From an uncultured Gammaproteobacteria bacterium (lineage in GTDB: Bacteria; Patescibacteriota; Patescibacteriia; UBA9934; GWF2-40-263), in contig CAYNRK010000004.1 of NCBI GenBank assembly GCA_964399675.1, positions 12,715-76,714 on the forward strand: a stretch of 64,000 nt of DNA, written 5' to 3'. Below, in pieces: positions 39,316-56,656 of the stretch. Numbering within the stretch: the first letter of the stretch is position 1; each line of letters opens with the position of its first letter. The notes below the pieces were generated by a model. The model saw nothing but the letters and a program-made list of their open reading frames with translations. It ran no database searches and was not told where the DNA came from. A program made the position numbers and the translations under genes.

Positions 39316-40207
39316 AAAAATTTATTGAAAATTCGATTATTTTTTTGGCAATGTCTTTGCCGGTAACTTCCTCCAAGGCTTTAAATCCAGGATTGGCATT
39401 TACTTCCAAAACAAGCGGTCCACTTTCAGATCTAATAAGATCAACTCCTGCAATTTCAAGGTTAACTGATTTTGCAACTTTTACTGCAAGTTGTTTTTCC
39501 TGATCTGATAATTCAATTTCTTTTCCTGTTCCACCTGTTGAAGTGTTTGCTCTAATGTCTCCAGAAGACGCTGATCGTTCCATTGCGGCAATTACTTTAT
39601 TTCCAATCACAAACGCACGCACATCTTTTCTTTCTGCCTCTTTGACAAATCGTTGAACAATAATTGGATTGTGATCTCGGATTGCTAAGTATTCAGCAAT
39701 TGGCTGAAAAGTCTCTTTGTCTGGCGCATAAAATACACCCTTACCATGAGTTCCAAATGCAATTTTGATAATCACAGGAAAACCAAGTTGATTTGCAAAC
39801 ACTAAAGCTTGTTCAGGATTTTTTGTGATTGCTGATTCAGGATGAGGAATGTCATTATTTTGAAAATGTAGTAATTGTCTAATTTTGTTTTTTGATAAAC
39901 CAAGATGATGCTTGCTGTTTATCAATTTAAATCCAGATTGATTTAAATAATGAATCGGATGCATGTGCAAGCTTGGCTCTTCAATAAAGTTTGGTCTTGG
40001 AAGAATTACATCAAGTTTTGGAAGTGGTTTTCCATCATAAAGATAACCCCCCCTAACCCCCCCTTGAAAGGGGGGGGAACAAAACAAAAAGTTTGGTTCG
40101 TACAATCGAACTGTTTCATGTCCAAGCTCTTTTGCAGCTTCTTCAAGTCGATCAACACTTGAATATTGCTCCCAGGATTGTTTTGAAATAAGAATTCCAA
40201 TTTTCAT
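39314..40207 (-). CDS. RimK-family ATP-grasp ligase (alpha-L-glutamate ligase-like)
   Basis: ATP-grasp C-terminal half (..AGVDLIRSESGPLVLEVNANPGF..). Contains an in-frame family-C element (..[12 protein letters not shown]..). The track N-terminus 40208..40321 is read-through of a family-A repeat. Confidence 0.7.
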   Translation of the reverse strand: MKIGILISKQSWEQYSSVDRLEEAAKELGHETVRLYEPNFLFCSPPFQGGVRGGYLYDGKPLPKLDVILPRPNFIEEPSLHMHPIHYLNQSGFKLINSKHHLGLSKNKIRQLLHFQNNDIPHPESAITKNPEQALVFANQLGFPVIIKIAFGTHGKGVFYAPDKETFQPIAEYLAIRDHNPIIVQRFVKEAERKDVRAFVIGNKVIAAMERSASSGDIRANTSTGGTGKEIELSDQEKQLAVKVAKSVNLEIAGVDLIRSESGPLVLEVNANPGFKALEEVTGKDIAKKIIEFSINF

Positions 40208-40325: not shown

Positions 40326-40330
40326 TTTCA

Positions 40331-41813: not shown

Positions 41814-41824
41814 ATATCCCCCGA

Positions 41825-41866: not shown

Positions 41867-41871
41867 CATTT

Positions 41872-42309
41872 ATGAAAAAAATCATCACAACACTTATTAT
41901 ATTATCACTGATCGGTGTGGCCATTTCCACTTATTCCTTTTTGCACAACAAAGGTTTTGTGTCTGGTGAAATTTGTGTAATCGGTGAATCATTGGATTGT
42001 GATGTTGTAAACCAAGGACCTTACTCAAAACTGTTTGGTATTCCTGTTTCATTGATAGGGATTATTGGATACGCTTTTCTTTTTGTTGGATCTGTAATGA
42101 AGCGTAACGACCAAAAAGACGAGGGGCTTACCAGATTTTTGTTATTAGCATCTTTGGGAGGTCTGTTGTTCAGCTTTTATTTATCCGGAATTGAGGCGTT
42201 TATTTTGCAGACTTGGTGTTTGGTTTGTTTGATATCTCAGTTGGTAATTTTGCTCATTACTATTCTGGCTGGTAAGGTTTATTTATTGGAGAAAAAGTCA
42301 GAGAAATAA
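41872..42309 (+). CDS. vitamin K epoxide reductase family protein (VKOR, DsbB analogue)
   Basis: Loop cysteine pair (C..C) and TM4 CLVC redox motif. Four TM helices. Confidence 0.75.
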   Translation: MKKIITTLIILSLIGVAISTYSFLHNKGFVSGEICVIGESLDCDVVNQGPYSKLFGIPVSLIGIIGYAFLFVGSVMKRNDQKDEGLTRFLLLASLGGLLFSFYLSGIEAFILQTWCLVCLISQLVILLITILAGKVYLLEKKSEK

Positions 42310-42322
42310 AAGTTTAAAATAT

Positions 42323-42631
42323 ATGGATAAACAAAAAGCAATTATAATAGGTTTTTTACAGGCAGTTGCAATGACTGTATATGTTTTTTTGGTTTCAGCT
42401 TTAATGATGAGTCTTGATAATATTTTGCCAAACATGCCAGCATTTGGTATTGCCAGCTTTTTACTCCTCTTTGTTTTATCTGCTGCATTTATGGCTCTGA
42501 TTTTTGCAGGTTATCCGGTTTCATTGTTTTTCAAAAAAGATACAAAAAGAGGATTGCACATAATGGGATTCACAGTTCTTTTTTTAGCATTATTTTTTCT
42601 AGCATTCATTATTATCCAGGCTTCAGTTTAA
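42323..42631 (+). CDS. hypothetical small membrane protein
   Basis: Three hydrophobic helices. Confidence 0.35.
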   Translation: MDKQKAIIIGFLQAVAMTVYVFLVSALMMSLDNILPNMPAFGIASFLLLFVLSAAFMALIFAGYPVSLFFKKDTKRGLHIMGFTVLFLALFFLAFIIIQASV

Positions 42632-42637
42632 ATCGAT

Positions 42638-44005
42638 ATGTTGCTTTCTTTTCATGGGGCGGCGCGGGGGGTAACCGGATCTTGTCATTTATTAAAATTA
42701 AAAGACGCTGATGGCAAAGATCATCAGCTTCTTTTTGATTGTGGAATGTTTCAAGGCGAAAATTTGTGTGGATCAAAAAACTTGGAAGACTTTGGTTTTG
42801 ATCCAAAACAAGTTGATGCGTTATTTATCACACACCCTCATGTGGATCACACCGGACGAATACCAAAGTTGGTCAAGGAAGGTTTTTCCGGTTCGATTTA
42901 TATGACGCATCCGTGCCATGGATTATCAAAGCTTGTTTTGGAAGATGCGTATCATATTATGACAGAAGATGCTGAAAAGTGTGGAAGTTCTGTTTTGTAT
43001 GAATTGAAAGATTTAATGAAATCATTTGAACAAATAAAAACAGTTTCATATCACGAGCAGGTGGATGTTGCTCCAGGTGTTAGTATCATGTTCCATGATG
43101 CAGGGCATGTGTTAGGCTCCTCGTTTATTTCTGTTGAAGCAGAAGGTAAGCGTGTTGTTTTTTCAGGTGATATTGGAAACGACAATGTGCCAATATTGCC
43201 GGACACAGAGGCCCTTTCAAAAGCTGATGTTGTTATTTGTGAAGCAACATATGGACATAGAGTTCATGAGGAAAGGTCTGAGAGGTCAAAAAAGCTGAAA
43301 GAGGCTTTGGAGGAAACAATAAAAAATAAATCGGTTTTGATGATTCCGGCTTTTTCAATTGAGCGAACCCAAGAATTGTTATACGAGATTGACAGGATTC
43401 TTTTGAATGAACTTAAAACAAAGATTCCGATTTTTCTTGATAGTCCAATGGCAATAAAGGCTACTCAGCTTTATCGAGATTTTAAACAGTTTTTACAATT
43501 TGATGTTTCAATTTTAAGCGAACCGGATCGGGACTTTTTTACTTTTAAGAATCTGCGTGAGACTCTTTCAAGAGATGAATCAAAAGAGATTAACTATACA
43601 AAACCACCAAAGGTTATTATTGCCGGCTCTGGCATGATGTCTGGGGGACGAATTATGCATCATTTGATTCGTTATCTTCCTGATTCAAAAAATCAAGTTT
43701 TGATTATTGGTTTTCAGGCCAAAGGAACACTTGGGCGAAAGATTTTTGAGGGAGAAAAAAAGGTGCACATATTTCGAGAGGAGGTTGAAGTAAAAGCAAA
43801 GGTGTCAGCCATTGGCGCGTTTTCAGCGCATGGTGACATGAACAAACTTACAAAATGGCTTAAGCCGGAAGATGGGAAAGTGCCTGAACAGATTTTCCTT
43901 GTGCATGGGGATCCTGAAGCAAAAGAATTATTTGCAACTCATCTAAGACACAAATTACGAACTGACGTGATTGTGCCCGGGTATCATAGCGAACACGAAA
44001 TTTAA
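42638..44005 (+). CDS. beta-CASP metallo-beta-lactamase family ribonuclease (RNase J / CPSF-like)
   Basis: HxHxDH (ITHPHVDHTG) plus beta-CASP motifs. Length about 455 aa. Confidence 0.7.
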   Translation: MLLSFHGAARGVTGSCHLLKLKDADGKDHQLLFDCGMFQGENLCGSKNLEDFGFDPKQVDALFITHPHVDHTGRIPKLVKEGFSGSIYMTHPCHGLSKLVLEDAYHIMTEDAEKCGSSVLYELKDLMKSFEQIKTVSYHEQVDVAPGVSIMFHDAGHVLGSSFISVEAEGKRVVFSGDIGNDNVPILPDTEALSKADVVICEATYGHRVHEERSERSKKLKEALEETIKNKSVLMIPAFSIERTQELLYEIDRILLNELKTKIPIFLDSPMAIKATQLYRDFKQFLQFDVSILSEPDRDFFTFKNLRETLSRDESKEINYTKPPKVIIAGSGMMSGGRIMHHLIRYLPDSKNQVLIIGFQAKGTLGRKIFEGEKKVHIFREEVEVKAKVSAIGAFSAHGDMNKLTKWLKPEDGKVPEQIFLVHGDPEAKELFATHLRHKLRTDVIVPGYHSEHEI

Positions 44006-44032
44006 AACACCCGCCTTGAGCGGGTGTTTTTG
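44006..44032 (+). terminator. rho-independent terminator
   Basis: cacccgc-cttga-gcgggtg followed by TTTTT. Confidence 0.75.
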
Positions 44033-44130
44033 TCACCCCCCTCTTTTTGCGTCTTTGCGAGCCCCCTTTCGCGGAAAGGGGCGAAGCCCGTCCGAACGGC
44101 CGCAAGGCCGGGCGGGCAATCTCCGTTGAG
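44033..44130. repeat. GC-rich family-A variant (gcgtctttgcgagccccctttcgcggaaaggggcgaagcccgtccgaacgg..)
   Basis: Module 1 plus a cccctttcgcggaaagggg hairpin. Confidence 0.6.
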
Positions 44131-44245
44131 AACTATGTAGGACAGTCACGTTGTATAATTTCGGCAGACTCGCTTCGCTCGTGCTGGCGAAATTATACAA
44201 TATACCTGTTGATGGCGTCCTGGAGGTTCGTTGGAGGATTGTGGG
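44131..44245 (+). repeat. family-B repeat (about 110 bp), copy 1
   Basis: gacagtcacgttgtataatttcggcag..ctggcgaaattatacaa..cctgttgatgg..ttcgttggaggattgtg. Near-identical to 45412..45530 and 56521..56635. Confidence 0.85.
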
Positions 44246-44462
44246 GGACAGTCATGTTGTTTCACATGCACACAGGAAAAATTTTCTTGCTGCGGAACTC
44301 GTGCTCTTTGTTGTTTATTTTAAAGGTAAGCACTCAGACAGTCCTCGCTGCAAAAATTTTCCCTGTGTGCATGTGAAACAAATCCGAGGGCATTATTAAA
44401 TAGAAAAACCGCCAGAGCTTTCAGTGAAAGATGGCGATCTGATTGCTTGCTGAGTTCGTGGC

Positions 44463-45296
44463 CTAGGCCGCGAGCGGGAAGCGGTCGTGAAGGAGCTTCA
44501 TGGCGTTGAGCCCGATGAGTGCGGCTTCTTCGTCGCCGGTGACCTCGAACGTGTTGGTCTGGCGATTGCCGTAGATGGCGTTGACCGAGCCGGCCCAGTA
44601 GCCGCCATGGGTCATGCACCAGACGTAGATCGTTGCCGACTCCATGGAGTAGAGCAATACACCGCGTTGGGTCAGCTCGTCGTGGAGCATTTGCAAGCGC
44701 GGAGGGATGTAGCCCATGTCGTCCGGTCGTGCCTGGCCTTCGTTGAAGCACGTGGTTGTTGCCTCAATGCCGACGTGGTGCGGCAGGCTGAGAGTCTCGG
44801 CAGCCTCGATGAGCGCAGCGATCACTCGGTGGTCAGCGAATGCAGGATACTCGATCGGCGCCCAGTTGGTGCTGGCGCCATCCAGTCGAACAGCCCCGCT
44901 TGCGATGGCTGATTCACCGACGTTCGGCTCTCTCTGGAGCGTGGAGCATGAGCCCACACGGATAAAGCGCTCTGCTCCCGAACGCACTGCCTCGGGCAGC
45001 ACAATGCCCGTGGATGCGCTGCCCATGCCGGTTGTGACCACAGACATGGGAACGCCCTGGAATTCGCCGGTGAAGCTCCTGAGCCCCCGGTGATCACCGA
45101 CCTTGATCGCCCCGGGACCGAAGAAGCGGCTCACCAACTCCTCAGCATCCTTGATCGGATCTGTTCCGGCGATCAGCTCTGCCCGTTCGGGTGAGCCCAC
45201 CAACAGGCAGTGGGGCGCCAGATCGTGTGCGTCTGTGTGGAGATGGTATTGCTTGCCACCTGCAGAGGTTGGGGCGTCAGCCTTTCTATCGCTCAT
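44463..45296 (-). CDS. nucleoside phosphorylase, PNP/UDP family 1 (purine/uridine phosphorylase-like), GC-rich island
   Basis: ..HCLLVGSPERAELIAG.. N-terminal fold and ..TGMGSASTGIVLPE.. segment typical of PNP_UDP_1. Confidence 0.7.
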   Translation of the reverse strand: MSDRKADAPTSAGGKQYHLHTDAHDLAPHCLLVGSPERAELIAGTDPIKDAEELVSRFFGPGAIKVGDHRGLRSFTGEFQGVPMSVVTTGMGSASTGIVLPEAVRSGAERFIRVGSCSTLQREPNVGESAIASGAVRLDGASTNWAPIEYPAFADHRVIAALIEAAETLSLPHHVGIEATTTCFNEGQARPDDMGYIPPRLQMLHDELTQRGVLLYSMESATIYVWCMTHGGYWAGSVNAIYGNRQTNTFEVTGDEEAALIGLNAMKLLHDRFPLAA

Positions 45297-45411
45297 GAAA
45301 CCCTCCTGGTTTCGCAGAGGTTCAAAAACAAAAACCGTTCGTATATTTACAACGGTTTAAGTGTTCTGTCAACCATGTCGCTTTATACGAAGCAATCTCC
45401 GGGAGACTTTT

Positions 45412-45530
45412 GGGGGACAGTCACGTTGTATAATTTCGGCAGACTCGCTTCGCTCGTGCTGGCGAAATTATACAACGTACCTGTTGATGGTGGCTTGGGG
45501 GTTCGTTGGAGGATTGTGTGAGTGCGGGTG
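45412..45530 (+). repeat. family-B repeat, copy 2 (direct repeat of copy 1)
   Basis: Over 90% identity by eye. Confidence 0.85.
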
Positions 45531-45576
45531 TTTAATAATGGACAGTCTGTTAATTTTATTTTAGTATGATCTCGTT

Positions 45577-47433
45577 ATGACCGATCAAAAGCAAATTCGG
45601 AATTTTTGCATTATTGCACACATTGATCATGGTAAGTCGACCCTTTCGGATCGGCTTCTTGAATTTACCGGCACAGTTGAAAAGAGAAAAATGCAAAATC
45701 AGATTTTGGATACAATGGAGCTGGAAAGGGAGAAAGGAATTACAATAAAGCTTGCGCCGGCAAGGATGGAGTATGACTACACACCAATAACCCCCCCTAA
45801 CCCCCCCTTGAAAAGGGGGGGAACTTACGTTCTCAATCTAATTGATACTCCGGGTCATGTTGATTTTAATTATGAAGTTTCTCGATCATTGGCAGCTGTT
45901 GAGGGCGCAATACTTTTAGTTGATGCAACTCAAGGTGTGCAAGCGCAAACCATTGCAAATCTTTTTTTGGCCATTGAAGAGGATTTAGAAATTATCCCTG
46001 TTCTTAATAAGATCGATCTTCCGGCAGCAGATGTTCCAGCACGAACAAAAGAAATTGTGAAACTTATTGGATGTGATCCAAAAGAGGTTTTGGCTGTAAG
46101 TGGAAAAACAGGCGAAGGTGTTGAAGCGCTTCTTGATGCAATTGTTAAGCGCATTCCAGCACCAAAAGGAAATACAGATGCGAATCCTCGAGCTTTGATT
46201 TTTGATTCTTTTTATGATGACTACCGTGGAGTCATGGCTTATATTCGCATGGTAGATGGTTTGCTTGAGAAAGGTTCAAAAATTGAAATGATTGGAACAA
46301 GTGCGCGCGCTGAAGTGTTGGAAATAGGGGCTGTTACTCCAAATGGACTAAAACCAAGTCCTGAATTTTCAACCGGGCAAATCGGTTATGTTGTCACAGG
46401 GCTTAAAGATATTTCCGCATGTCGAGTTGGTGATACTATAACTTCGGGAACCCCCCCTAACCCCCCCTTGAAAAGGGGGGGAACGTCACCGCTTCCGGGC
46501 TATAAAGATGTAAAGCCAATGGTTTTTGCTGGAATGTTTCCGCAAGAAGGTAATGACTTTCAAAAGTTAAGAGAAGCAATTGAAAGGCTAAAATTAAATG
46601 ATTCAGCGTTGATTTATGAACCAGAACACTCACCGGCGCTTGGTTATGGATTTCGGTGTGGGCTTTTGGGAATGTTGCATTTGGAGATTTTAAAAGAACG
46701 ACTTGAGCGTGAGTTTAATTTGGAACTTGTTGTTACTGTTCCATCAGTTGCGTATCAGGTTCATCAGCGTTCCAAAGAAATGATTATAATCAAGAGTCCG
46801 CTTGATCTTCCGGATCCGTCACATATTGATTTTATTGAAGAGCCATGGGTAAAATTAGATATTGTTACACCAACGGATTATGTTGGTGCTGTAATGCAGT
46901 TGGTGCAGGATAGGCGCGGTACTTACAAGAACACAGAATACCTTTCTGAGAATCGGGCGATTTTGCATTACGAGATTCCGCTTTCAATGATCATTGTTGA
47001 TTTTTACGATAAACTTAAAGGAGTAACAGCCGGATACGCATCAATGAATTATGAGGTCATTGATTATCGTGAAGCAAATGTTGTGCGTATGAATATTTTA
47101 GTGGCTGAGGATACTGTTGATGCGTTTGCTACACTTGTCTATCGAGATGAGGCGGATAAGGCTGGACGGAGAATTGTGAAGTCACTTAAAGAATCAATTC
47201 CGCGAGCAAACTTTGTAATCAAACTGCAAGCCGCTGTTGGTGGTAAGATTGTTGCAAGTGAAAGAATTTCCGCAGTTCGAAAAGACGTGACTGCAAATTT
47301 GTATGGAGGTGACGTAACACGGAAGCGCAAACTGCTTGAAAAGCAAAAGAAAGGAAAAGCTAAAATGCTAGCTCATGGAAAAGGAAAGGTAAATATTCCA
47401 ACGAATGCATATTTGAATGTTTTAAAAAGATAG
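45577..47433 (+). CDS. lepA: elongation factor 4
   Basis: FCIIAHIDHGKSTLSDRLL G1 motif and LepA-specific C-terminal domain. Two in-frame family-C insertions (PPNPPLKRGGT) at 45789..45825 and 46449..46485. Confidence 0.9.
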   Translation: MTDQKQIRNFCIIAHIDHGKSTLSDRLLEFTGTVEKRKMQNQILDTMELEREKGITIKLAPARMEYDYTPITPPNPPLKRGGTYVLNLIDTPGHVDFNYEVSRSLAAVEGAILLVDATQGVQAQTIANLFLAIEEDLEIIPVLNKIDLPAADVPARTKEIVKLIGCDPKEVLAVSGKTGEGVEALLDAIVKRIPAPKGNTDANPRALIFDSFYDDYRGVMAYIRMVDGLLEKGSKIEMIGTSARAEVLEIGAVTPNGLKPSPEFSTGQIGYVVTGLKDISACRVGDTITSGTPPNPPLKRGGTSPLPGYKDVKPMVFAGMFPQEGNDFQKLREAIERLKLNDSALIYEPEHSPALGYGFRCGLLGMLHLEILKERLEREFNLELVVTVPSVAYQVHQRSKEMIIIKSPLDLPDPSHIDFIEEPWVKLDIVTPTDYVGAVMQLVQDRRGTYKNTEYLSENRAILHYEIPLSMIIVDFYDKLKGVTAGYASMNYEVIDYREANVVRMNILVAEDTVDAFATLVYRDEADKAGRRIVKSLKESIPRANFVIKLQAAVGGKIVASERISAVRKDVTANLYGGDVTRKRKLLEKQKKGKAKMLAHGKGKVNIPTNAYLNVLKR

Positions 47434-47534
47434 TATGAAAAAGAAAACAAAGTTCCGAATCTTTTGGGGTGTTGTTGGGGGAATGGTGATCATCAGCATG
47501 GTCATGTTTACGGTTGCTATTGGTTTTGGGCTCT

Positions 47535-47615
47535 AGTTGTCATCCCGAGCGAGGCGCAGCCAAGCCGAGGGATCTCGCATATTCGAGATTTCTCCGCTCG
47601 CTGTGCTCGGTCGAA
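47535..47615. repeat. family-A palindromic element
   Basis: gtcatcccgagcgaggcgcagccaagccgagggatctcgcatattcgagatttctcc..tcgaaatgac. Confidence 0.8.
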
Positions 47616-49355
47616 ATGACAAAAAGAATGCAGTGGCGTGTTGCTGAGAAAATTTTAGAGGAAATCAAAAAACAGTTTCCGGAGATTGATCCGGCTGTTT
47701 TGCAATTATTGTTTAATCGCAACATTAAAACACAAGAAGAGATTGATGTTTATTTAAGTCCGGATTGGAGCCGAGACACTTTTTCACCTCATCTGTTTAA
47801 CAACATGAGTGAGGCGATCAAAAGAGTGTTTGATTCACTTGAGGCCGGTGATGTTATTACTGTTCATGGAGATTATGATGCAGACGGCGTATGCGCTTCG
47901 GCAATTCTAATATCAACACTTAAAGAAATTTGTCGAGAATTTGATTTTGATAAATTAAAAATCACTTCATATATTCCGCATCGCGAAAAAGAGGGTTATG
48001 GCATGTCTGTGGAAACGATTGAGCATCTTCATGAACACGACAAGACAAAACTTGTAATTGCTGTTGATTGCGGAATTAGCAACAAGCCGGCGGTTGATCG
48101 CGGAAAAGAACAGGGAATGGATACGATTATTTGTGATCACCACACAATGCCGGAAGAATTACCTGATCAAGCAATTCTGATTCATCCGTTGGTTCCAGGT
48201 GAAAAGTTTCCAAACAAGCATCTTTGTGGCACAAGTGTGGCGTTTAAGCTTGCAAGCGCTTTGTTGGATGAGGCGCGAACACGCGGGGCATCGTTTCCGG
48301 CGGGTTATGAAAAGTGGCTTTTAGATTTGGTTGCAATCGCAACTGTGACAGATGTTATGCCGCTAACAGGAGAGAATCGTGTGCTTGAAAAGTATGGTCT
48401 TTTGGTTTTGAATAAAACACGAAGAAAAGGCATTCAGAAACTTATTGATATTGCAGGTTCAAAAAAGGGCAAGCTTGATACTGTTTCGATTGGTTTCCAA
48501 CTTGGTCCTCGGATTAACGCAGCCGGAAGAATGACGCATGCCAATGAGGCGCTTGCGCTTATGGTTGAGGAAGATGATTTGCAAGCAACAAAGTTTGCAA
48601 TGCAATTGAATGATCGAAATAAAGAACGACAAGCAGCTTCTCAACAAATGTATTTGCAAGCAAAAAAACTTGTAAAAGACCCTGGCGATCAAAAGTTGTT
48701 GATTGTGTGTCAACAAGGTTGGCCAGCAGGGCTTGTGGGTTTGGTTGCCGGAAAGCTTGTGAATGAGTTTCATGTACCAACGTTTGTTGTTGGACAAGAT
48801 GGTGAAAAATTTGTTGGCTCAGGTAGGAGTATTAAAGGATTTGATATTACAAAGGCCATGCATGCAGCATCGGAACATCTTGATCGATTTGGTGGACATC
48901 CGGAAGCGTGCGGCTTTTCAACCACTGGTCAGGATCGATTTGAAAAAGCAAAAAGTGTAATGCTTGAATATGCTCAAACACAGATTAAAGATGAAATGCT
49001 TTTGCCAATCCTAAATATTGACGCAGAAATTGATTTTAAAGATGTTACATGGGATTTGCAAAAAGAGCTTGAAAAGTTTGAGCCATTTGGTAAGGGGAAT
49101 CCGCAGCCGATTTTTGCCAGCAAACAAGTTGAGGTTGTAGACAAAAGATATGTTGGGGCTGATGGAAAACATTTACGACTGACGGTTCGTTCACCGCGTG
49201 GTACCATAATGAAAATGATTGGGTTTCGATTTGGTGAAATGTTTGATCAACTCGAAATCGGAAAACCAATAGACGTTGCTTATGAGATTGGTGTTAATGA
49301 GTGGAATGGTAATAGGGAATTGCAATTAAAGATTGTGGATATTAAATTGAGGTAG
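47616..49355 (+). CDS. recJ: single-stranded-DNA-specific exonuclease
   Basis: DHH motifs (VHGDYDADGVCA; CDHH), DHHA1 and an OB-fold C-terminus. Track start 47514 is repeat read-through. Confidence 0.85.
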   Translation: MTKRMQWRVAEKILEEIKKQFPEIDPAVLQLLFNRNIKTQEEIDVYLSPDWSRDTFSPHLFNNMSEAIKRVFDSLEAGDVITVHGDYDADGVCASAILISTLKEICREFDFDKLKITSYIPHREKEGYGMSVETIEHLHEHDKTKLVIAVDCGISNKPAVDRGKEQGMDTIICDHHTMPEELPDQAILIHPLVPGEKFPNKHLCGTSVAFKLASALLDEARTRGASFPAGYEKWLLDLVAIATVTDVMPLTGENRVLEKYGLLVLNKTRRKGIQKLIDIAGSKKGKLDTVSIGFQLGPRINAAGRMTHANEALALMVEEDDLQATKFAMQLNDRNKERQAASQQMYLQAKKLVKDPGDQKLLIVCQQGWPAGLVGLVAGKLVNEFHVPTFVVGQDGEKFVGSGRSIKGFDITKAMHAASEHLDRFGGHPEACGFSTTGQDRFEKAKSVMLEYAQTQIKDEMLLPILNIDAEIDFKDVTWDLQKELEKFEPFGKGNPQPIFASKQVEVVDKRYVGADGKHLRLTVRSPRGTIMKMIGFRFGEMFDQLEIGKPIDVAYEIGVNEWNGNRELQLKIVDIKLR

Positions 49356-49378
49356 ATACCGAACGTCCCCCTTTTCAA

Positions 49379-49475
49379 GAAATACTAACCACCCCTAACC
49401 CCTCCTTGAAAAGGAGGGGAATAATGCATGTCGGTTGAAAGTTCTCCCCCTTTTTAAGGGGGAGTTAGAGGGGGT
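49379..49475. repeat. family-C palindromic element (aaccacccctaacccctccttgaaaaggaggggaa) plus second hairpin tctccccctttttaagggggag
   Basis: Direct repeat of 49852..49892. The same core sits in frame inside lepA, ligA, pilD and the RimK-like gene. Confidence 0.85.
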
Positions 49476-49488
49476 TATGATTTTGGAT

Positions 49489-49848
49489 ATGTATAACGAA
49501 CTTTTCAATAAAAAAGAAAAGAAAACTTTCAGACAAAAATTACGAACTGATCCAACAGCAGCAGAAAAACAGTTGTGGCCACATCTGCAAGGTAGACAAA
49601 TAGAAGGATTGAAGTTTCGGCGTCAGCATGGAATCGGAAAGTATGTCGTCGATTTCTATTGTCCTGAAATCAAACTTATTATAGAGGTTGATGGTGATTC
49701 ACATTTTGAACCTGGAGCTCAAGAAAAAGATGTTGAACGAGAGAGAAGTCTTATTAATAGTGGTTTTCGAGTTTTGCGCTTTACCGATCGTGACATTTTT
49801 GATTCGATGGAAGATGTGATTGAAATTATAAAATCAAATTTATACTAG
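49489..49848 (+). CDS. DUF559 / Vsr-like (PD-(D/E)xK fold) endonuclease-domain protein, copy 1
   Basis: ..KFRRQHGIGKYVVDFYCPEIKLIIEVDGDSH..RVLRF.. pattern of the very-short-patch-repair-like DUF559 family. Start set after the repeat-derived 18 codons. Confidence 0.7.
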   Translation: MYNELFNKKEKKTFRQKLRTDPTAAEKQLWPHLQGRQIEGLKFRRQHGIGKYVVDFYCPEIKLIIEVDGDSHFEPGAQEKDVERERSLINSGFRVLRFTDRDIFDSMEDVIEIIKSNLY

Positions 49849-49851
49849 AAA

Positions 49852-49892
49852 TACTAACCACCCCTAACCCCTCCTTGAAAAGGAGGGGAACT
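49852..49892. repeat. family-C palindromic element
   Basis: gaaatactaaccacccctaacccctccttgaaaaggaggggaa. Confidence 0.85.
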
Positions 49893-49903
49893 TTCCAAAA
49901 ACT

Positions 49904-50302
49904 ATGAAACTAACTATTTTTACTGACGGTGGTTCAAGAGGGAATCCCGGACACGCGGCTTCTGCTGCTGTGTTAAAAAATTCTGCTGGAGAAACAGTTG
50001 CAACCGTATCAAAGTACCTTGGTAAAACAACAAACAACCAGGCTGAATACACTGCAATTGTTTTGGGTCTTCAAAAAGCAAAGAAAATGAAAGCCACAGA
50101 AGTGCAGGTTTATATGGACTCAGAACTTGCTACAAAACAGCTCAATGGTCAGTACAAGGTGAAGAATCCCGGTATTGCTGAGCGGTTTTTGGAAGTTAAA
50201 AATCTTATGCACGCTTTTAAACGTGTGAAGTTTTCACATGTAAGACGTGAAAAAAATAAGGAATCCGATGCTTTAGTAAACAAAGTTTTGGACGAATTGT
50301 GA
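49904..50302 (+). CDS. rnhA: ribonuclease HI (small RNase H-like)
   Basis: IFTDGGSRGNPG..TNNQAEY..D(S)..D catalytic DEDD arrangement. Confidence 0.75.
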   Translation: MKLTIFTDGGSRGNPGHAASAAVLKNSAGETVATVSKYLGKTTNNQAEYTAIVLGLQKAKKMKATEVQVYMDSELATKQLNGQYKVKNPGIAERFLEVKNLMHAFKRVKFSHVRREKNKESDALVNKVLDEL

Positions 50303-50317
50303 TATAATAATTCCATT

Positions 50318-51433
50318 ATGGGATTGTTTGGAGGTAAAAAATCAAATACGTTTTTAGGCGTTGATGTTGGGGCAAGCAGCATCAAAATTATTGAATTTGC
50401 AAATGTAAAGGGTCGTGCCAAACTAATGACTTATGGTTATGTTGAAGTTCCTGTTGCTGAGTCTGGCGAGTCTTTGTTGGATACTCCAAAACGAACAGGG
50501 GAGTTGCTTCAAAAGGTTTGCAAAGATTCCGGATGTAAATCAACCAGTGCAATGGCAGCACTTGCTTCATCAGCTGTGTTTTCAACAATCCTTTCTATTC
50601 CAAAAGCAAAGGATAAAAAAATGATGAAACCGCTTATTGATGCAGAGCTTGAAAAGCTCACCCCGCTTCCTTTGACTGAAATGATTACGTATTCGACATT
50701 TTTAGATGAAGAGAAAGAAAAAAAACCAGAAGGAAAAAAGAAGGAAGTTGAGAAAGTTGAAAAGAAAGATGAGACAAAACACTCGCGCGTACTTGTCACA
50801 GCTGCGGCAAAAACATTGGTTCAAAAATATATTGAAATTTTCCGTGTTGCAAAACTTGAGCTTCAGGCTTTGGATACAGAATCGTTTGCGCTTATTAGAT
50901 CGCTTATTGGAAAAGACAAAGGATCAATCATGATTATTGATCTTGGGTCCAAACGAACAAATCTAACAGTTGTTGAAAAAGGAATTCCTTTTATTTCACG
51001 TAGCATCAACATTGGGGGCGACTCAGTCACAAGAAAGATAATGGAAACAATGCAACTTTCAGAGACTGATGCAGAGCGAATGAAACGTGATCTTGGTCAA
51101 ATGAGCGGAGAAGGTTCTGATCTTCCAGGAGGCTTGCCAAAAATTTTAGAGTTTTTTATCCAGCCATTAGTAAATGAGATTCGATACACGTTTGAGCTTT
51201 ATGCAAACACAGAGCTTACAGACAGAAAGTCGATTGATAAAATTGTTCTAACCGGTGGTGCATCAAACTTGCCGCGCGTCCCAGAGTATTTGGCTGAGGC
51301 TCTGAATTTAAATGTATATCGCGGTGATCCATGGGCACGTGTTGTTTTTCCAAATGATCTGGCATCTGTTTTGGAAGAGATTGGTCCAAGGATGAGTATT
51401 TCAATAGGACTCGCAATGCGAGACATAGAATGA
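50318..51433 (+). CDS. pilM: type IV pilus assembly ATPase-like protein PilM
   Basis: Actin-like fold. N-terminus LGVDVGASSIKII. Followed by pilin and prepilin peptidase genes. Confidence 0.75.
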   Translation: MGLFGGKKSNTFLGVDVGASSIKIIEFANVKGRAKLMTYGYVEVPVAESGESLLDTPKRTGELLQKVCKDSGCKSTSAMAALASSAVFSTILSIPKAKDKKMMKPLIDAELEKLTPLPLTEMITYSTFLDEEKEKKPEGKKKEVEKVEKKDETKHSRVLVTAAAKTLVQKYIEIFRVAKLELQALDTESFALIRSLIGKDKGSIMIIDLGSKRTNLTVVEKGIPFISRSINIGGDSVTRKIMETMQLSETDAERMKRDLGQMSGEGSDLPGGLPKILEFFIQPLVNEIRYTFELYANTELTDRKSIDKIVLTGGASNLPRVPEYLAEALNLNVYRGDPWARVVFPNDLASVLEEIGPRMSISIGLAMRDIE

Positions 51434-51447
51434 TAGAATCTAATAGT

Positions 51448-51960
51448 ATGAAAAACAAAAAAGGCTTTACTTTAGTAGAAATTTTAGTGGTTGTTGCCAT
51501 TATTGCGCTTGTTGGAACAATGGCAGCTGTTGCTGTTAATTCAGCGCGGTCAAAACAAAGAGACGCAACTAGGCTTTCAAATGTAAGACAGCTTCAGTCA
51601 GCAATGGAAGATTTCTTTAATGAAAGCAATCATTATCCAAACGGCGATCTAACTCCACTTGGGGACGCCTCAATCAGTTCTTGTTTGAGTACAACTGGAT
51701 TCCATGGAGACTGTTCACTTGATTCCGCCGTGTTTCTTAGAGTGGTTTCCGGTACATATGAAAAAGGTCTTGATGGTGTTGTTACCTGCGGTGATCCGGC
51801 ACGAAATGCACTTTGTTACACACAACTCAAAGAAGGTGATGCATATGTAATTCATTTTGAACTGGAGAATGGTTTGGCTGCAGTTGGATTGCAGCAAGGT
51901 GTGAACTGTGCAACACCAAACGGAATGTTTGCCGGTGTGTGTGCTGAAGAAGTTGAATAA
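51448..51960 (+). CDS. type IV pilin / pseudopilin with prepilin N-terminal methylation domain
   Basis: MKNKKG|FTLVEILVVVAIIALV is a class III signal peptide. Confidence 0.8.
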   Translation: MKNKKGFTLVEILVVVAIIALVGTMAAVAVNSARSKQRDATRLSNVRQLQSAMEDFFNESNHYPNGDLTPLGDASISSCLSTTGFHGDCSLDSAVFLRVVSGTYEKGLDGVVTCGDPARNALCYTQLKEGDAYVIHFELENGLAAVGLQQGVNCATPNGMFAGVCAEEVE

Positions 51961-51963
51961 AAT

Positions 51964-52734
51964 ATGACACTCTTCATACTTTTTCTTTTAGGAATTTGTG
52001 TGGGGAGTTTTTTAAATGTTGCGATTTTTAGAGCGCATGAAGACGAGAAGTTGCGTGGGCGTTCAAAGTGCATGAAATGTGAGATTCCAATCGGTGCTAA
52101 AGATTTGGTGCCGGTTTTAAGCTACTTGTTGCTAAAAGGTAGGTGTAGAAATTGCAAACAAGTTTTCTCATGGCAATACCCAGCAGTTGAGCTTGCAACC
52201 GGATTGCTTTTTATAATTCCCCCCCTTATCAAGGGGGGGTTAGGGGGGGTTAGCTTTGATTTATTGCCGATCCTAATCCGCGACTGGGTTTTCATTTCTT
52301 TTCTAATAATCATTTTTGTTTACGATCTAAAGCACATGTTGATTTTGGATCGTTTTACAATTCCAGCAATGATATTTGCTTTGATCGCAAACCTTTGGAT
52401 TGGAATCATTCCAGCATGGTTATTGTTGCTTGGGGCAGTTGTGTTAGCAGGATTTTTTTACATTCAGTTTTTGATTTCAAAAGGCAAATGGATTGGAGGG
52501 GGAGATATTCGACTTGGAGCACTCATGGGATTTATGCTTGGACTCCAGTATGGATTGGTTGCTTTGTTTTTAGGATATGTATTTGGTGCTGTGTTTGGTT
52601 TGATTTTGATGGCGCTTAATAAAGCCAATAAAAAAACAATGATTCCTTTGGGAACATTTTTAACCATTTCAACGCTCATAACTCTTTTTTACGGGCACAA
52701 CATTCTTGATTGGTATTTAGGGTTTTTCGTCTGA
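51964..52734 (+). CDS. pilD: prepilin peptidase (A24 family)
   Basis: N-terminal CxxC..CxxC zinc module (CMKC..CRNC) and a polytopic A24 domain. In-frame family-C insertion at 52218..52253 (..PPLIKGGLGGV..). Confidence 0.8.
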   Translation: MTLFILFLLGICVGSFLNVAIFRAHEDEKLRGRSKCMKCEIPIGAKDLVPVLSYLLLKGRCRNCKQVFSWQYPAVELATGLLFIIPPLIKGGLGGVSFDLLPILIRDWVFISFLIIIFVYDLKHMLILDRFTIPAMIFALIANLWIGIIPAWLLLLGAVVLAGFFYIQFLISKGKWIGGGDIRLGALMGFMLGLQYGLVALFLGYVFGAVFGLILMALNKANKKTMIPLGTFLTISTLITLFYGHNILDWYLGFFV

Positions 52735-52740
52735 TACTGA

Positions 52741-52890
52741 ATGTCCCCCTTTTCAAGGGGGACTACAGGGGGTTAGCATTTCATAAGCATAACCACCCCT
52801 AACCCCTCCTTGAAAAGGAGGGGAATAATGCATGTCGGTTGAAAGTTCTCCCCCTTTTTAAGGGGGAGTTAGAGGGGGTTAGCATTTTGA
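52741..52890. repeat. family-C element cluster (gtcccccttttcaagggggac; aaccacccctaacccctccttgaaaaggaggggaa; tctccccctttttaagggggag)
   Basis: Paralogous to 49379..49475. Confidence 0.85.
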
Positions 52891-52892
52891 AT

Positions 52893-53252
52893 ATGTATAA
52901 CGAACTATTTAATAAAAAAGACAAGAAAACTTTTAGACAAAAATTACGTACTGATCCAACAGCAGCAGAAAAGTTGTTATGGTTGCATTTGCAGGGTAAG
53001 CAAATGGAAGGATTAAAGTTTCGGCGGCAGCACGGAATCGGAAAGTATGTCGTTGATTTCCATTGTCCTAAAATTAAACTTGTTATTGAGGTTGATGGTG
53101 ATTCGCATTTTGAATCAGGAGCTCAGCAAAAAGATTCCGAACGAGAGCAATATCTAATCAACAAAGGTCTTCGAGTTTTACGGTTTACTGATCGTGACAT
53201 TTTTGATTCGATGGAGGACGTTGTTGAAATTATTCAATCAAACTTATACTAA
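52893..53252 (+). CDS. DUF559 / Vsr-like endonuclease-domain protein, copy 2
   Basis: About 90% identical to copy 1 at protein level (alignment by eye). Confidence 0.7.
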   Translation: MYNELFNKKDKKTFRQKLRTDPTAAEKLLWLHLQGKQMEGLKFRRQHGIGKYVVDFHCPKIKLVIEVDGDSHFESGAQQKDSEREQYLINKGLRVLRFTDRDIFDSMEDVVEIIQSNLY

Positions 53253-53285
53253 CCACCCCTAACCCCTCCTTGAAAAGGAGGGGAA
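53245..53285. repeat. family-C palindromic element
   Basis: tactaaccacccctaacccctccttgaaaaggaggggaa. Confidence 0.85.
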
Positions 53286-53456
53286 GAATGCGAGATCTTC
53301 AATCAACTATTGACATTTTAGTCTTTTTTTGTTAATTTATTTTTCTCTTTGCCACAGTGTTTAGTGCACCAACTTGATGCCTTAAACGTTGTGGCAAAGG
53401 GCGCTGCTTGCGCATATCGCGTAGGAGTTTGTTGGTTGCCATGGCAAAGGAACACA

Positions 53457-54044
53457 ATGGCTGCAAGTATTGGTCAGGCATTGGAGCTCATGACAAAGCT
53501 CGCAACAGCAGTCCCGTGGGGCGAGCTGGACAAACAGTTCGTTCAAGGTCTCATCGCTGACCCAGAGATCGGTTCTGAGTTCGTCTACTTCCTTCGAAAC
53601 TGGGGCGGGTCGGTCGTCGGTGAGCAGATCATCGACCTCGAAGTCAATCCGTTCATTCCGGATGGTTCTGAGATCTGCCCCAAGGACCAGATCGACAGCA
53701 GCGTTTGCGGCAAGTTCATCTTCGACCCCGATCAGATCGAGCTACATCTCGATTCGGGTCAGGAAGACGAGGAGTCGATCCAAGGCTATGACCTGCGCAG
53801 AGCCCTTGAGGGTCAGCCGGTTTTGCCCGCACATGTTCTCGACTTCCTGCTCGAGAACCCGCACTTCATCCCGGAGAGCTGGGAGGACAAGGGGGTGTTC
53901 TTCTGGGGCACCATCTACCGCTGCTCGGGCGGCAGCCTGTATGTCCGTTGCCTCCGCTGGCGCGGTGCTAGGTGGTGCTGGCGCTACGGCTGGCTTGGCG
54001 ATCACTGGGGCTCCGACGATCCTGCTGCGGTTTCCGCAAGCTAG
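53457..54044 (+). CDS. hypothetical protein (GC-rich island)
   Basis: ORF in a roughly 60% GC block. Preceded by TTGACA-like promoter elements and a 5' hairpin ctttgccacag..ctgtggcaaag. Confidence 0.45.
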   Translation: MAASIGQALELMTKLATAVPWGELDKQFVQGLIADPEIGSEFVYFLRNWGGSVVGEQIIDLEVNPFIPDGSEICPKDQIDSSVCGKFIFDPDQIELHLDSGQEDEESIQGYDLRRALEGQPVLPAHVLDFLLENPHFIPESWEDKGVFFWGTIYRCSGGSLYVRCLRWRGARWCWRYGWLGDHWGSDDPAAVSAS

Positions 54045-54184
54045 GATCTGGGAATCTGGAGCTCTGGTTACTAAGCTCTTTGAACTCTTGACTCCTAGCT
54101 CTCAACGGCCAATCACACTCGTGAACGGTCGTTTTTCAATTTAATTATTGATTTTTAAATTATCGAAAAACTTTTTAGAAAAAA

Positions 54185-54236
54185 TACTTATACCATTCGT
54201 GACGATCGTCAGTTTTGGTATAAGTATTTTTTAGTA
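54185..54236. terminator. perfect hairpin acttatacca..tgacgatcgtca..tggtataagt flanked by A-tract and T-tract
   Basis: Third copy of the 5369/5948 element. Confidence 0.7.
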
Positions 54237-54323
54237 TCCAATAAACAGCTTGCTGTTATAGTTACAAATTGTTGGCAATAATTTTTTGTTTTTTTCGTTT
54301 TCTCAACAAGTTTTTTGTGTTAA

Positions 54324-56348
<2,025 letters not shown>

Positions 56349-56379: not shown

Positions 56380-56520
56380 CTTCATCCTGTGTCATTGCTC
56401 TCCCCTGCGTCGTTGCGAGCCCCCTTTCGTGAAACGGGGCGAAGCAATCTCCGTAAAGAATTCCCTCGTGTCCTGCACCTTGTGTCATTGCGAGCGAAGC
56501 GAAGCAATCTTCGTAAAGAA
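56380..56520. repeat. family-A module cluster
   Basis: gtcattgc..gcgtcgttgcgagccccctttcgtgaaacggggcgaagcaatctccgt.. repeated twice. Confidence 0.8.
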
Positions 56521-56635
56521 TTATGGGGGACAGTCACGTTGTATATAATTTCGGCAGTACTCGCTTTGTTCCGTGCTGGCGAAATTATATACAACGTACC
56601 TGTTGATGGCAGACTGAGTGTTCGTCGGAGGATTG
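56521..56635 (+). repeat. family-B repeat, copy 3
   Basis: gacagtcacgttgtatataatttcggcag..ctggcgaaattatatacaa..cctgttgatgg..ttcgtcggaggattgtg. Confidence 0.8.
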
Positions 56636-56656
56636 TGGATTTTTTTAAATAGATTT

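Follow-up and report, generated by a model that had tools for sequence, protein, structure and literature searches.

Two DUF559 nuclease genes between inverted three-arm palindromes in a Candidatus Uhrbacteria bacterium: an apparent family of selfish cassettes recurring across bacterial phyla

We analysed a 64-kb stretch of DNA (the window) of a Candidatus Uhrbacteria bacterium, in which an earlier note had placed two nearly identical DUF559 genes, each bounded by direct repeats of about 40 bp. Both genes were present on the forward strand, copy 1 at 49489..49848 and copy 2 at 52893..53252, and each encodes a Vsr-like, EDxHD-type endonuclease of 119 aa that matches Pfam PF04480 (DUF559) with E-values of 1e-32 and 5e-32 (112.7 and 110.4 bits as against a gathering cut-off of 20.6), respectively. 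The stop codon TAA of copy 2 is the first TAA of the palindromic element on its right. The claim of near identity had to be given up, as the copies agree at only 305 of 360 nucleotides and 103 of 119 amino acids, with a dS of 0.69, a dN/dS of 0.11 and 45% of synonymous sites different. The two genes are old paralogs under purifying selection, and a divergence of this size (dS 0.69) gives no hint that the gene itself was copied recently. The flanks of the two units (cassettes, below) were free of differences both across a 92-nt block upstream and across the 35-nt right end.

Comparison of copy 1 with PDB sequences returned 3hrl (E 3e-30) and 3r3p (E 2e-5). A fold search (Foldseek) gave TM scores of 0.61-0.77 between the DUF559 model and 3hrl or the catalytic domain of I-Bth0305I (3r3p), and the model was nearer to both of these than to Vsr. 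Residues E30, D59, D72, H76 and D85 were invariant among 29 DUF559 homologues and align with E170, D196, N208, H213 and D222 of I-Bth0305I, the EDxHD positions that are found also in Vsr. The predicted catalytic residues of the EDxHD/Vsr site are thus all intact, and the window proteins are modelled with the composite EDxHD motif on a Vsr-like fold. Identity as a Vsr mismatch endonuclease was not borne out, since the scores were sub-threshold (Pfam Vsr 17.4 against 27 bits, TIGR00632 16.7 against 97.9) and no C5-cytosine methyltransferase lies nearby, no methyltransferase partner being found among the genes called in 39477-59848. NCBIfam PRK09767 (YcjD) was matched weakly (66 bits against 218). 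Pfam revealed no extra domain in the 119-aa ORF, and Rfam no intron around it; the ORF stands free between RecJ and RNase H. Membership of a defence system was rejected, PADLOC having given weak nuclease-domain matches only. With a limit of E<=1e-30 the DUF559 family comprises about 1,700 clusters (50% identity), and with E<=1e-10 about 24,000. Many databases name its members 'very-short-patch-repair endonuclease'.

The palindrome flanking these genes (family C) was found as 12 intact copies and one truncated copy (49365-49379) in the window, all within 40044-54849. The sequence AACCACCCCTAACCCCTCCTTGAAAAGGAGGGGAA occurs exactly four times, at 49387, 49856, 52791 and 53251, bracketing each gene, with 0 occurrences expected from shuffles. 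The direct repeats proved to be exact copies, 45 nt long around copy 1, where they take in AGAAATAC, and 36 nt long around copy 2. Direct copies had been proposed as the functional ends; each gene in fact lies between inverted copies. The 'companion hairpin' (TCTCCCCCTTTTTAAGGGGGAG with TTAGAGGGGGTTA) is indeed present but is not a second family; it is the same element inverted, and the real unit is therefore L(inverted)-DUF559-R. Nor does this hairpin run into the first codons, as 11 nt separate the end of the element from the conserved ATG; it is only a mechanically called ORF starting at TTG that reads through it.

The left end of cassette 1, the former 'companion hairpin', is a type II element on the minus strand at 49444..49477 (plus strand CTCCCCC TTTTTAA GGGGGAG TTA GAGGGGG TTA), and its right end is a type I element on the plus strand at 49855..49890. 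Cassette 2 is bounded in the same manner by a type II element at 52848..52881 (minus strand) and a type I element at 53250..53285 (plus strand). The upstream direct copies belong to an adjacent gene-less doublet, which is intact before cassette 2 (52743-52825) and truncated before cassette 1 (49365-49421). The intact doublet has at its left end a three-arm element on the minus strand (52743..52775, reading GTCCCCC TTTTCAA GGGGGAC TA CAGGGGG TTA) and at its right end a type I element on the plus strand (52790..52825), which serves copy 2 as its upstream direct repeat. Cassette 1 likewise has as its upstream direct repeat a type I element on the plus strand (49386..49421), reading TAA CCACCCC TAA CCCCTCC TTGAAAA GGAGGGG AA; the spacer of about 21 nt that follows it (49422..49443, plus strand), between the plus and the minus element, is identical in both cassettes. 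Before this direct repeat lies a truncated left-type element (49365..49379, plus strand, GTCCCCC TTTTCAA G), which was aligned to the intact 52743-52775 and is joined via AAATAC to the next element. Its odd junction, TTTTCAAG followed by AAATACTAACC, recurs in locus L293. The stretch 49365..49379 is thus what remains of the gene-less doublet lying before cassette 1.

Each element, called by an explicit strict detector, is 33-36 nt long and consists of a 9-bp C/G hairpin, a free 3-nt loop and a third arm that mirrors the stem; in the cassettes the third arms point toward the DUF559 gene and the hairpins outward. Of 124 scanned copies with free N positions, 113 had a third arm that mirrored the stem (A and T being interchangeable). 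Among hairpins near DUF559 genes chosen without regard to the element, 52 of 68 lay along the mirror diagonal, as against 3 along the direct diagonal. ViennaRNA folded the element into the 9-bp hairpin only. Watson-Crick pairing of the third arm with a stem arm was rejected, as one mismatch and one wobble always remain, and for this reason the mirror (triplex-type) reading would be the better fit. Judged by its letters, the element is a homopurine-homopyrimidine mirror repeat of the kind that qualifies as candidate H-DNA, i.e. an intramolecular triplex. The hairpins are followed by AA or TTAG and by no T-tract; the terminator scan lay below the shuffle mean, and promoter and terminator scans together at or below shuffle background, on which ground a role of the elements as promoters or intrinsic terminators was rejected. 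An Rfam search of 39-56 kb at a permissive E-value gave chance miRNA and leader matches only.

The earlier note had also reported five solo copies within genes, and all five were recovered, each in frame. They are type III elements: one, all-C, on the plus strand in a RimK/ATP-grasp-like gene of the minus strand (40044..40079, encoding 11 residues), two on the plus strand in LepA (45788..45823 and 46448..46483, 12 residues each), one on the minus strand in the prepilin peptidase PilD (52217..52252, encoding IPPLIKGGLGGV) and one on the plus strand in the NAD-dependent DNA ligase LigA (54814..54849, 11 residues). They cluster around the cassettes (permutation p = 0.003), and their borders read (T/G)AA...AA only. 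Solo copies had been regarded as non-autonomous derivatives of the cassette; derivatives in the form of gene-less doublets do exist, but the solo copies of the window differ in subtype from the cassette ends, all five being all-C and the cassette ends T-interrupted. Both LepA inserts are absent from LepA of related Uhrbacteria, where the divergence of the empty-site DNA is too high to place the junctions to the base. At the LigA site two related genera carry decayed elements of other types and a third carries none. In other phyla, 31 of 89 solo copies fall within long ORFs.

A pattern scan of one genome per species yielded 125 element matches from many phyla. Ten of them had a DUF559 ORF at a distance of 0-300 nt, and in every case the inverted element came first, then the gene and then the direct element; 115 had no DUF559 ORF within 300 nt, and 114 had none anywhere in the fetched locus (<=8 kb). 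For the reverse test, 82 metagenome DUF559 genes were chosen by protein similarity alone. The earlier note would have been refuted had DUF559 genes elsewhere never adjoined the palindrome; they clearly do, 51 of the 82 genes having one strict element or more within 200 nt. Among these 51, an inverted copy lay upstream in 32, a direct copy downstream in 35 and both in 22, and the wrong orientation was seen in 14 and 14. Element density was 1.67 per kb near DUF559 genes against 0.10 per kb elsewhere (17-fold), and 0 in shuffled sequence. The association of DUF559 with three-arm elements is general across phyla. The commonest arrangement of elements was the R-spacer-L junction (54 pairs). Left and right cassette ends are often different variants, so that a simple symmetric homodimer model does not explain the ends. 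The 248 kb surrounding 80 distant viral relatives of DUF559 contained no element, and IMG/VR had only 2 matches to the element. A phage vector for the cassette was rejected because of these two matches only and because the viral relatives are distant and element-free.

The cassette behaves as a unit. Within a clade of six loci (L160, L175, L176, L179, L189 and L192), nucleotide homology of 70-79% extends over exactly the stretch that the left and right hairpins delimit, and the surroundings outside the outer hairpins are unrelated; within the clade, gene and end variants are passed on together. DUF559 is the sole ORF within the cassette, and no other gene type recurs between elements. Gene-less (-,+) doublets were found 25 times elsewhere, one of which (L160, 579-677) retains the first and last 10 nt or so of the cassette interior, and internal-deletion derivatives of about 70-170 bp retain both ends, e.g. 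the 113-bp elements of a Prevotella MAG. DUF559 with its flanking palindromes is a recurrent discrete unit found across phyla in varied genomic places.

Empty sites, for which the earlier note had proposed a search in related genomes, were found. Four other Uhrbacteria share the order LepA-RecJ-RNaseH-PilM-pilin-PilD-x-LigA and lack the DUF559 gene at the syntenic sites; in three of them RecJ and RNase H are 0-58 nt apart, and this junction is an empty site. PilD was called in one of the four (L209), with no DUF559 after it. A third cassette from the same series of samples has different surroundings, and a further cassette from Uhrbacteria lies elsewhere again. Target-site duplications, a check that the earlier note had named, were seen neither at the two window cassettes nor in the six clade members nor at solo-copy borders. 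Contigs with an identical protein (L001-L008) were at least 99.97% identical to the window with no indels, and no ongoing mobility was seen because the database strains of this organism are all identical. Among orthologous fetched loci, a four-arm element was present in L177 and absent in L168, and no pair differing in the presence of a cassette was found.

To this unit we give about an even chance of being what its architecture suggests, namely that the window holds two selfish cassettes of about 0.45 kb, whose DUF559 nuclease cuts their ends and which spread in a homing or gene-conversion-like manner. Both the action of the nuclease on the elements and the origin of new copies are inferred. 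The nuclease would recognise and cut or nick the structured ends or the gene-less L-R doublets, in which the third arms abut and make up a palindrome centred on the place of the gene. Repair or recombination by the host, with the repeats of about 35 nt as homology, may then copy the cassette or repeat sequence, and copying of this homing or gene-conversion-like kind would preserve the identity of the ends even as the genes drift. On this view the gene-less doublets and the solo elements are non-autonomous relatives. We propose that elements survive in essential genes because their C- and G-runs can be read as Pro and Gly in open frames. Against nuclease-driven spread it must be said that the 119-aa nuclease is without strand-transfer activity or a separate DNA-binding domain. 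More doubtful, and offered tentatively, is the wider suggestion of a new class of mobile DNA, in which a minimal Vsr-like (DUF559) nuclease as the only protein would read structure and not sequence alone, with ends made of a hairpin and a mirror arm, capable of a purine-motif triplex, and with nick- or break-induced copying.

An unlikely alternative is that another enzyme moves the three-arm elements and DUF559 is a frequent passenger or a preferred landing place, for instance if elements tend to insert beside other elements or beside this gene. It would fit the majority of elements elsewhere, which have no DUF559 in the fetched locus (<=8 kb), the subtype difference between solo copies and cassette ends, the often differing left and right ends and the prevalence of R-spacer-L junctions (54 pairs), which suggests insertion next to existing elements. 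It sits badly with homology that is bounded by the outer hairpins across unrelated contexts, gene included, and with co-inherited end variants; the strong orientation bias relative to the DUF559 gene and the lack of any other gene type recurring between elements also speak against it. The sole transposase-like neighbour, a Y1 transposase gene (Y1_Tnp, L293) near the third cassette, carries its own, different flanking palindrome. That the nuclease might instead be domesticated to the benefit of the host, as a repair enzyme specific for structures or mismatches that processes or maintains C/G-run repeats forming hairpins or triplexes, with the elements as its own regulatory or recognition sites in a RAYT-REPIN-like mutualism, we regard as distinctly unlikely, the cassettes being missing at syntenic sites of related genera and placed at different sites in different genomes. 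More than one copy in the genome, a patchy phyletic distribution with near-identical 35-nt ends across phyla and the lack of a methyltransferase partner in the neighbourhood weigh on the same side. Such a role would nevertheless suit two old paralogs under strong purifying selection, a Vsr-like active site (Vsr repairs T:G mismatches), the one LigA site that shows three internally consistent element types in three genera, and flanks homogenised in spite of gene divergence, the outcome expected of biased repair or gene conversion.

It is highly improbable that the elements are only expression signals of DUF559, with an upstream hairpin sequestering the Shine-Dalgarno sequence, a downstream hairpin stabilising or terminating the mRNA and solo copies as by-products. 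The stems do hold CCTCC (an anti-SD mimic) and GGAGG (Shine-Dalgarno-like), and the elements lie 2-40 nt from the start codon upstream and abut the stop codon downstream; however, there is no T-tract, the promoter and terminator scans gave nothing above background, elements are inserted in frame in unrelated genes in both orientations, gene-less doublets exist and the mirror third arm is left without a role. A function in expression could be compatible with mobility of the elements. A chance by-product of local segmental duplication in a repeat-rich genome is scarcely credible: the genes are only 3.4 kb apart and have a compound flank in common, but their flanks are identical while 45% of synonymous sites differ, and the architecture recurs in independent phyla. 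Segmental duplication is refuted by this cross-phylum recurrence, by the 51 of 82 DUF559 loci, an unbiased set, and by the density enrichment.

The reading as selfish cassettes cut by their own nuclease was compared with known systems. REPIN-RAYT resembles it in a short palindromic repeat dispersed as singlets and inverted doublets, REP/REPIN doublets being the likely replicating unit (PMC3116915, PMC3337134), and in an enzyme gene that itself lies between inverted repeat copies, as it does here. RAYT, however, is an HUH Y1 transposase (IS200/IS605-like) and the enzyme here a PD-(D/E)xK/Vsr-like nuclease; the elements here have a mirror third arm, lack a GTAG or CGTC tag and occur also inside ORFs; and RAYTs are single-copy and vertically inherited, whereas the cassettes are multi-copy, cross-phylum and absent from syntenic sites of sister genera. 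With EDxHD homing endonucleases (I-Bth0305I, PDB 3r3p; PMC3239194) DUF559 shares the catalytic fold and five catalytic positions, and with homing endonuclease genes in general the placing of a selfish nuclease gene at the centre of a (pseudo)palindromic sequence, for which spread by break repair is plausible. In contrast to I-Bth0305I, it lacks an intron or intein as well as the NUMOD DNA-binding domain (119 against 266 aa), it would target a repeated element and not one unique, conserved gene, and bounded ends and gene-less derivatives are found only on the cassette side.

Insertion sequences and MITEs (PMC10969869) likewise have terminal inverted repeats (about 33 nt here), a single internal ORF and internal-deletion derivatives. 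The cassette differs in showing none of the known transposase chemistries (DDE, HUH, Ser or Tyr) and no detected target-site duplication, in that each of its ends is a hairpin with a mirror arm and in half-units of 33-36 nt that occur alone. The Rickettsia palindromic elements (RPEs), placed in frame in unrelated and essential genes to which they add a tolerated peptide, are similar to the solo inserts, but are about 100-150 bp long, restricted to Rickettsia and without an associated gene; the three-arm inserts are 33-36 nt long, C/G-rich, encode Pro/Gly-rich loops, cross phyla and have a cognate gene cassette. Vsr endonuclease has the fold and catalytic residues of DUF559, which nevertheless scores below the Vsr Pfam and TIGR cut-offs and has no adjacent cytosine methyltransferase. 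Integron attC cassettes also present a small promoterless ORF followed by an imperfect palindrome, and arrays are possible, but here there is no integrase and no resemblance to attC, an inverted copy lies upstream and elements occur inside ORFs. The cassette looks like an undescribed family of selfish DNA; no description of cassette or element was found in the literature searched (DUF559, the element, the peptides, palindromes of Patescibacteria) or in Rfam.

Since DUF559 is a very large family with no assigned function, usually mislabelled as Vsr, its link to these repeats across phyla offers a testable hypothesis for its substrate, and the model of a structure-reading nuclease, if true, would give much of the family a function. 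If the nuclease drives the repeats, they would represent a second, mechanistically unrelated route to the REPIN-RAYT lifestyle and the first repeat family with triplex-type (mirror) covariation at its ends. It would also account for the in-frame inserts, rich in Pro and Gly, that interrupt essential genes in the CPR and in other bacteria, and for the flagging of DUF559 genes as targets of 'programmed inversion' (PMC9881135). Many of the spurious extensions that database DUF559 gene calls show at the N- or C-terminus, and many fused multi-domain calls, would likewise be accounted for; C-terminal tails translated from the right element were present in 56 of the 120 closest homologues.

The two DUF559 genes of the window (49489..49848, copy 1, and 52893..53252, copy 2, both on the + strand) each encode a protein of 119 aa, with Pfam DUF559 matches at E 1e-32 and 5e-32, respectively. 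The earlier note called them nearly identical, but only 305/360 nt and 103/119 aa are common to both, and their divergence (dS 0.69, dN 0.08, dN/dS 0.11) indicates that they are old paralogs under purifying selection. A 35-mer (AACCACCCCTAACCCCTCCTTGAAAAGGAGGGGAA), of which no occurrence is expected by chance in the window, was found exactly four times (49387, 49856, 52791 and 53251), bracketing both genes. With a hairpin detector, 12 intact family-C (three-arm) elements were located in the 64-kb window, all within 40044-54849; a truncated copy lies at 49365-49379. Both loci have the same layout, in which a gene-less doublet (L', short spacer, R) is followed after 21 nt by the cassette (L, DUF559, R). 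The doublet upstream of cassette 2 is intact (52743-52825), and that upstream of cassette 1 is truncated (49365-49421). The L end of the cassette is an inverted type II element (CTCCCCC) and the R end a direct type I element (CCCCTCC). Direct repeats had been proposed to bracket each gene. This holds for the four copies of the 35-mer, but these are the R of the doublet and the R of the cassette, and the gene itself sits between inverted copies with third arms inward and hairpins outward. The companion hairpin, previously described as running into the first codons, turned out to be the same element in reverse orientation, ending 11 nt ahead of the conserved ATG. The R-spacer-L block (92 nt) and the 35-nt right end showed 0 differences between the two cassettes. 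Such identity despite the divergence of the genes means that the flanks are either homogenised or far more constrained than the protein; at the level of sequence, the ends stay identical while the genes drift.

The element spans 33-36 nt. In direct orientation it reads (T)AA - arm3 - TAA - arm1 - TTnnnAA - arm2 - AA, where arm1 and arm2 with the TT/AA fold into a 9-bp hairpin with a 3-nt loop. Arm3 is the mirror of arm1 and not its complement, A and T being interchangeable. A pattern scan of one genome per species, with six arm positions set to N, gave 124 hits among the matches listed. Among these listed hits, the stem CCCCTCC/GGAGGGG occurred with arm3 CC[A/T]CCCC in 62 and the stem CTCCCCC/GGGGGAG with arm3 CCCCC[T/A]C in 44, while 7 were all-C; none mixed stem and arm3 types, and the loop centres were free to vary. 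We repeated the mirror test on 68 hairpins near DUF559 genes, unselected for the element: the base interrupting arm1 at position p was matched at 8-p of the upstream 7-mer in 52 and at p in 3. Across the family (window copies and loci L009-L206), the interrupting base was found at four or five different positions, each time with its mirror position in arm3. Purine-motif triplexes follow the rule G*G:C, A*A:T or T*A:T. By this established chemistry the G-rich strand of both variants would form a putative triplex, and the mirror arm fits a purine-motif intramolecular triplex (H-DNA), the covariation extending over a handful of phylogenetically non-independent stem types. One reading frame is open through the element in direct and two in inverted orientation, turning the C-runs and G-runs into Pro and Gly (e.g. 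PPLIKGGLGGV).

The cassette behaved as a unit. Six metagenome loci form a clade in which nucleotide homology (70-79%) covered about 430 nt, exactly between the outer bases of the left and right hairpins, and the surrounding DNA was unrelated. Left and right end variants in this clade were unlike each other, each being kept within the clade, and no target-site duplication was seen at its cassette borders. Inverted-direct element pairs enclosing DUF559 (n=29) were 340-469 nt apart, and those without a gene (n=25) 9-103 nt; one gene-less doublet adjoining a cassette retains the first and last internal bases of that cassette. The gene-less pairs include MITE-like elements of 113-114 bp with perfect 32-nt three-arm ends from a Prevotella sp. 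RGIG4603 MAG (L035, L037, L071, L118), in two internal-sequence subfamilies with several copies per genome; no DUF559 was found near them in the retrieved 8-kb loci. Direct-inverted junctions numbered 54 (e.g. L011, L014, L024, L034, L048, L076, L093, L113, L125 and others; window 49386-49477). In these the interrupting base was almost always at differing positions in the two hairpins, e.g. type II beside type I, and the loops either matched exactly or were reverse complements of each other, as if selection acted against cross-pairing of neighbouring hairpins.

The window host is a Candidatus Uhrbacteria bacterium. The block LepA-RecJ-RNaseH-PilM-pilin-(PilD)-x-LigA-GatC-GatA-Lgt is conserved in four other Uhrbacteria, of which one (L209) has a called PilD, with no DUF559 after it. 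The search for empty sites suggested in the earlier note succeeded, RecJ and RNase H being 0-58 nt apart in 3/4 of these relatives. Since the block is conserved in relatives without cassettes, both window cassettes are insertions and the relatives represent empty sites. In one related Uhrbacteria genome (L210, 3918-5386), the RecJ-RNase H junction carries two unrelated ORFs (191 and 235 aa) without Pfam match, so this junction may be a recurrent insertion hot spot. A third cassette, from the same sample series (L293), has the same flank types in another context; its protein is 76% identical to copy 1, and it shares with the window the odd junction of TTTTCAAG with AAATACTAACC. Another Uhrbacteria genome (L056) has a cassette at yet another site. 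The cassette is conserved and its inverted ends are structured, and gene-less derivatives exist alongside empty sites.

The five solo palindromes that had been placed inside genes are indeed all there in frame (RimK-like ATP-grasp, LepA twice, PilD and LigA). These five are the solo elements of the window, 0.5-9.3 kb from the cassettes; the other 49 kb are free of them (permutation p = 0.003). They are all-C throughout, unlike the cassette ends. LepA of relatives (77% identical) is without either insert. The LigA site carries a pristine all-C element in the window (54814-54849), a decayed CCTCCCC-type element in L209 (~9846-9900) and a decayed type II element in L210 (~8699-8750), and the element is absent in L208. 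Hairpin and mirror arm are consistent within each subtype across these three Uhrbacteria genera, L208 representing a fourth; the presence of three types at a single orthologous position suggests that conversion or re-insertion has happened repeatedly. Of the solo copies in other phyla, about a third (31/89) are in frame within long ORFs. A four-arm element is present in locus L177 where L168 (84-88% identical) has other sequence.

Scanning one genome per species gave at least 118 loci with the element. Within Patescibacteria these belonged to Uhr-, Andersen-, Doudna-, Magasanik-, Falkow- and Saccharibacteria, and outside to Cyanobacteria, Bacteroidota, several Proteobacteria, Planctomycetota, Nitrospinota, Poribacteria, Ignavibacteria and others; IMG/VR gave 2 matches. 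A DUF559 ORF lay 0-300 nt away from 10/125 element matches among those listed, in every case in the order inverted element, gene, direct element, and its stop codon was often the first TAA of R. In the reverse test, 80 metagenome loci with 82 DUF559 genes were picked by protein similarity alone. Contrary to the possibility, raised in the earlier note, that DUF559 genes elsewhere never adjoin the palindrome, at least one strict element was present within 200 nt of 51/82 genes. An upstream inverted copy was found for 32/82, a downstream direct copy for 35/82 and both in the expected orientation for 22/82, with 14 upstream and 14 downstream copies in the wrong orientation. The surroundings of 80 viral DUF559 relatives (27-45% identity, 248 kb) held 0 elements. 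C-terminal peptides such as TSPHPSLRRRGK, present in 56/120 closest homologues, are read-through into R. Many single-domain DUF559 entries also have N-terminal extensions of 35-70 aa translating the left element, e.g. PRLSKEGLGVV and PSPLQGGGREGV. Database entries in which two or three DUF559 domains follow each other (P0241, P0243, P0244, P0246, P0339) are probably tandem cassettes joined by read-through of ORF-compatible elements. The DUF559 profile matched 1,710 clusters (50% identity) at E<=1e-30; at the looser threshold of E<=1e-10 the number was 23,761.

Among solved structures, the closest relatives are the DUF559 protein 3hrl of N. gonorrhoeae (E 3e-30) and, at E 2e-5, the homing endonuclease I-Bth0305I in its catalytic domain. 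The AlphaFold model (pLDDT 81) aligned to both with TM 0.61-0.88, and more weakly to Vsr. Residues E30, D59, D72, H76 and D85, invariant in 29 homologues, correspond in alignment to the catalytic EDxHD positions that have been described in I-Bth0305I and Vsr (PMC3239194). The nuclease is under selection and apparently active. It would recognise folded or abutted cassette ends, and its cut or nick, repaired from other copies, would spread and homogenise elements and cassettes by a homing or gene-conversion-like route. Brought together (GGGGTGGTTA to TAACCACCCC), the two third arms would make a palindrome centred on the position of the gene, which is how the homing target of a dimeric enzyme is expected to be built.

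The system works like REPIN-RAYT, except that its enzyme is not a HUH transposase, and like IS/MITE pairs, except that neither target-site duplication nor a known transposase class was found. The enzyme is related to EDxHD homing endonucleases, but Pfam showed no NUMOD or other DNA-binding domain in it, and Rfam and Pfam no intron or intein at the locus; unlike Vsr, it has no methyltransferase pairing, none neighbouring the window genes. No Rfam model for the element was found in a scan of the window region, and no description of cassette or element in the literature searched. That the system represents an entirely new class of mobile DNA is possible, though still doubtful. We consider it unlikely that another enzyme moves the elements with DUF559 as passenger or target.

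A nuclease domesticated for repair or maintenance, in RAYT-like mutualism with the elements, appears somewhat less likely again. That the elements are pure expression signals is improbable. Chance duplication is refuted as the source of the arrangement: element density in the reverse-test loci was 1.67 per kb near DUF559 genes vs 0.10 per kb elsewhere, with 0 elements in shuffled sequence. DUF559 proteins are 14-fold enriched among predicted gene-altering programmed-inversion targets (PMC9881135). Because the genes have inverted three-arm flanks, the inverted elements are likely the trivial cause of this enrichment.

GC-rich islands at 44000-45500 (0.51-0.62) and 53500-54000 (0.60), in a genome of ~40% GC, are both probably foreign DNA; the first contains a PNP_UDP_1 gene (44463..45296, - strand) and the second a 195-aa ORF without Pfam or NCBIfam match (53457..54044), directly after cassette 2. 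A second repeat family, unrelated to family C (GTCATC(C/T)CGA(C/G)CGAGCGAAGCGAGCGGAGGGATCTCGnATATnCGAGATCTCTCC..., 9-10 copies), maps to 2694, 8792, 22510, 27511, 29842, 30304, 35228, 37224, 40220, 47534 and 60463; the RecJ ORF as called has one copy at its 5' end, and 29718-29867 contains a 30-nt tandem array. The third family comprises long AT-rich palindromes centred on CGATCG (ACTTATACCAnCCGTGACGATCGTCAnnTGGTATAAGT; 5368, 5944, 24638, 38087 and 54180), one just upstream of LigA. The fourth, ~116 nt long (GCAATCTCCG...GGGGGACAGTCACGTTGTATA...), flanks the PNP island on both sides (44116-44263 and 45391-45518) and recurs after LigA (56504-56637). In L293, a Y1_Tnp gene (IS200/RAYT-like, 14639-15085) lies 6 kb from the third cassette. 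It is bordered by a palindrome of its own, unlike the three-arm element (CCGGCAGAGCCGG / CCCCGGCAGAGCCGGGGG), and the two may be an ordinary REP-RAYT pair of the same genome or community.
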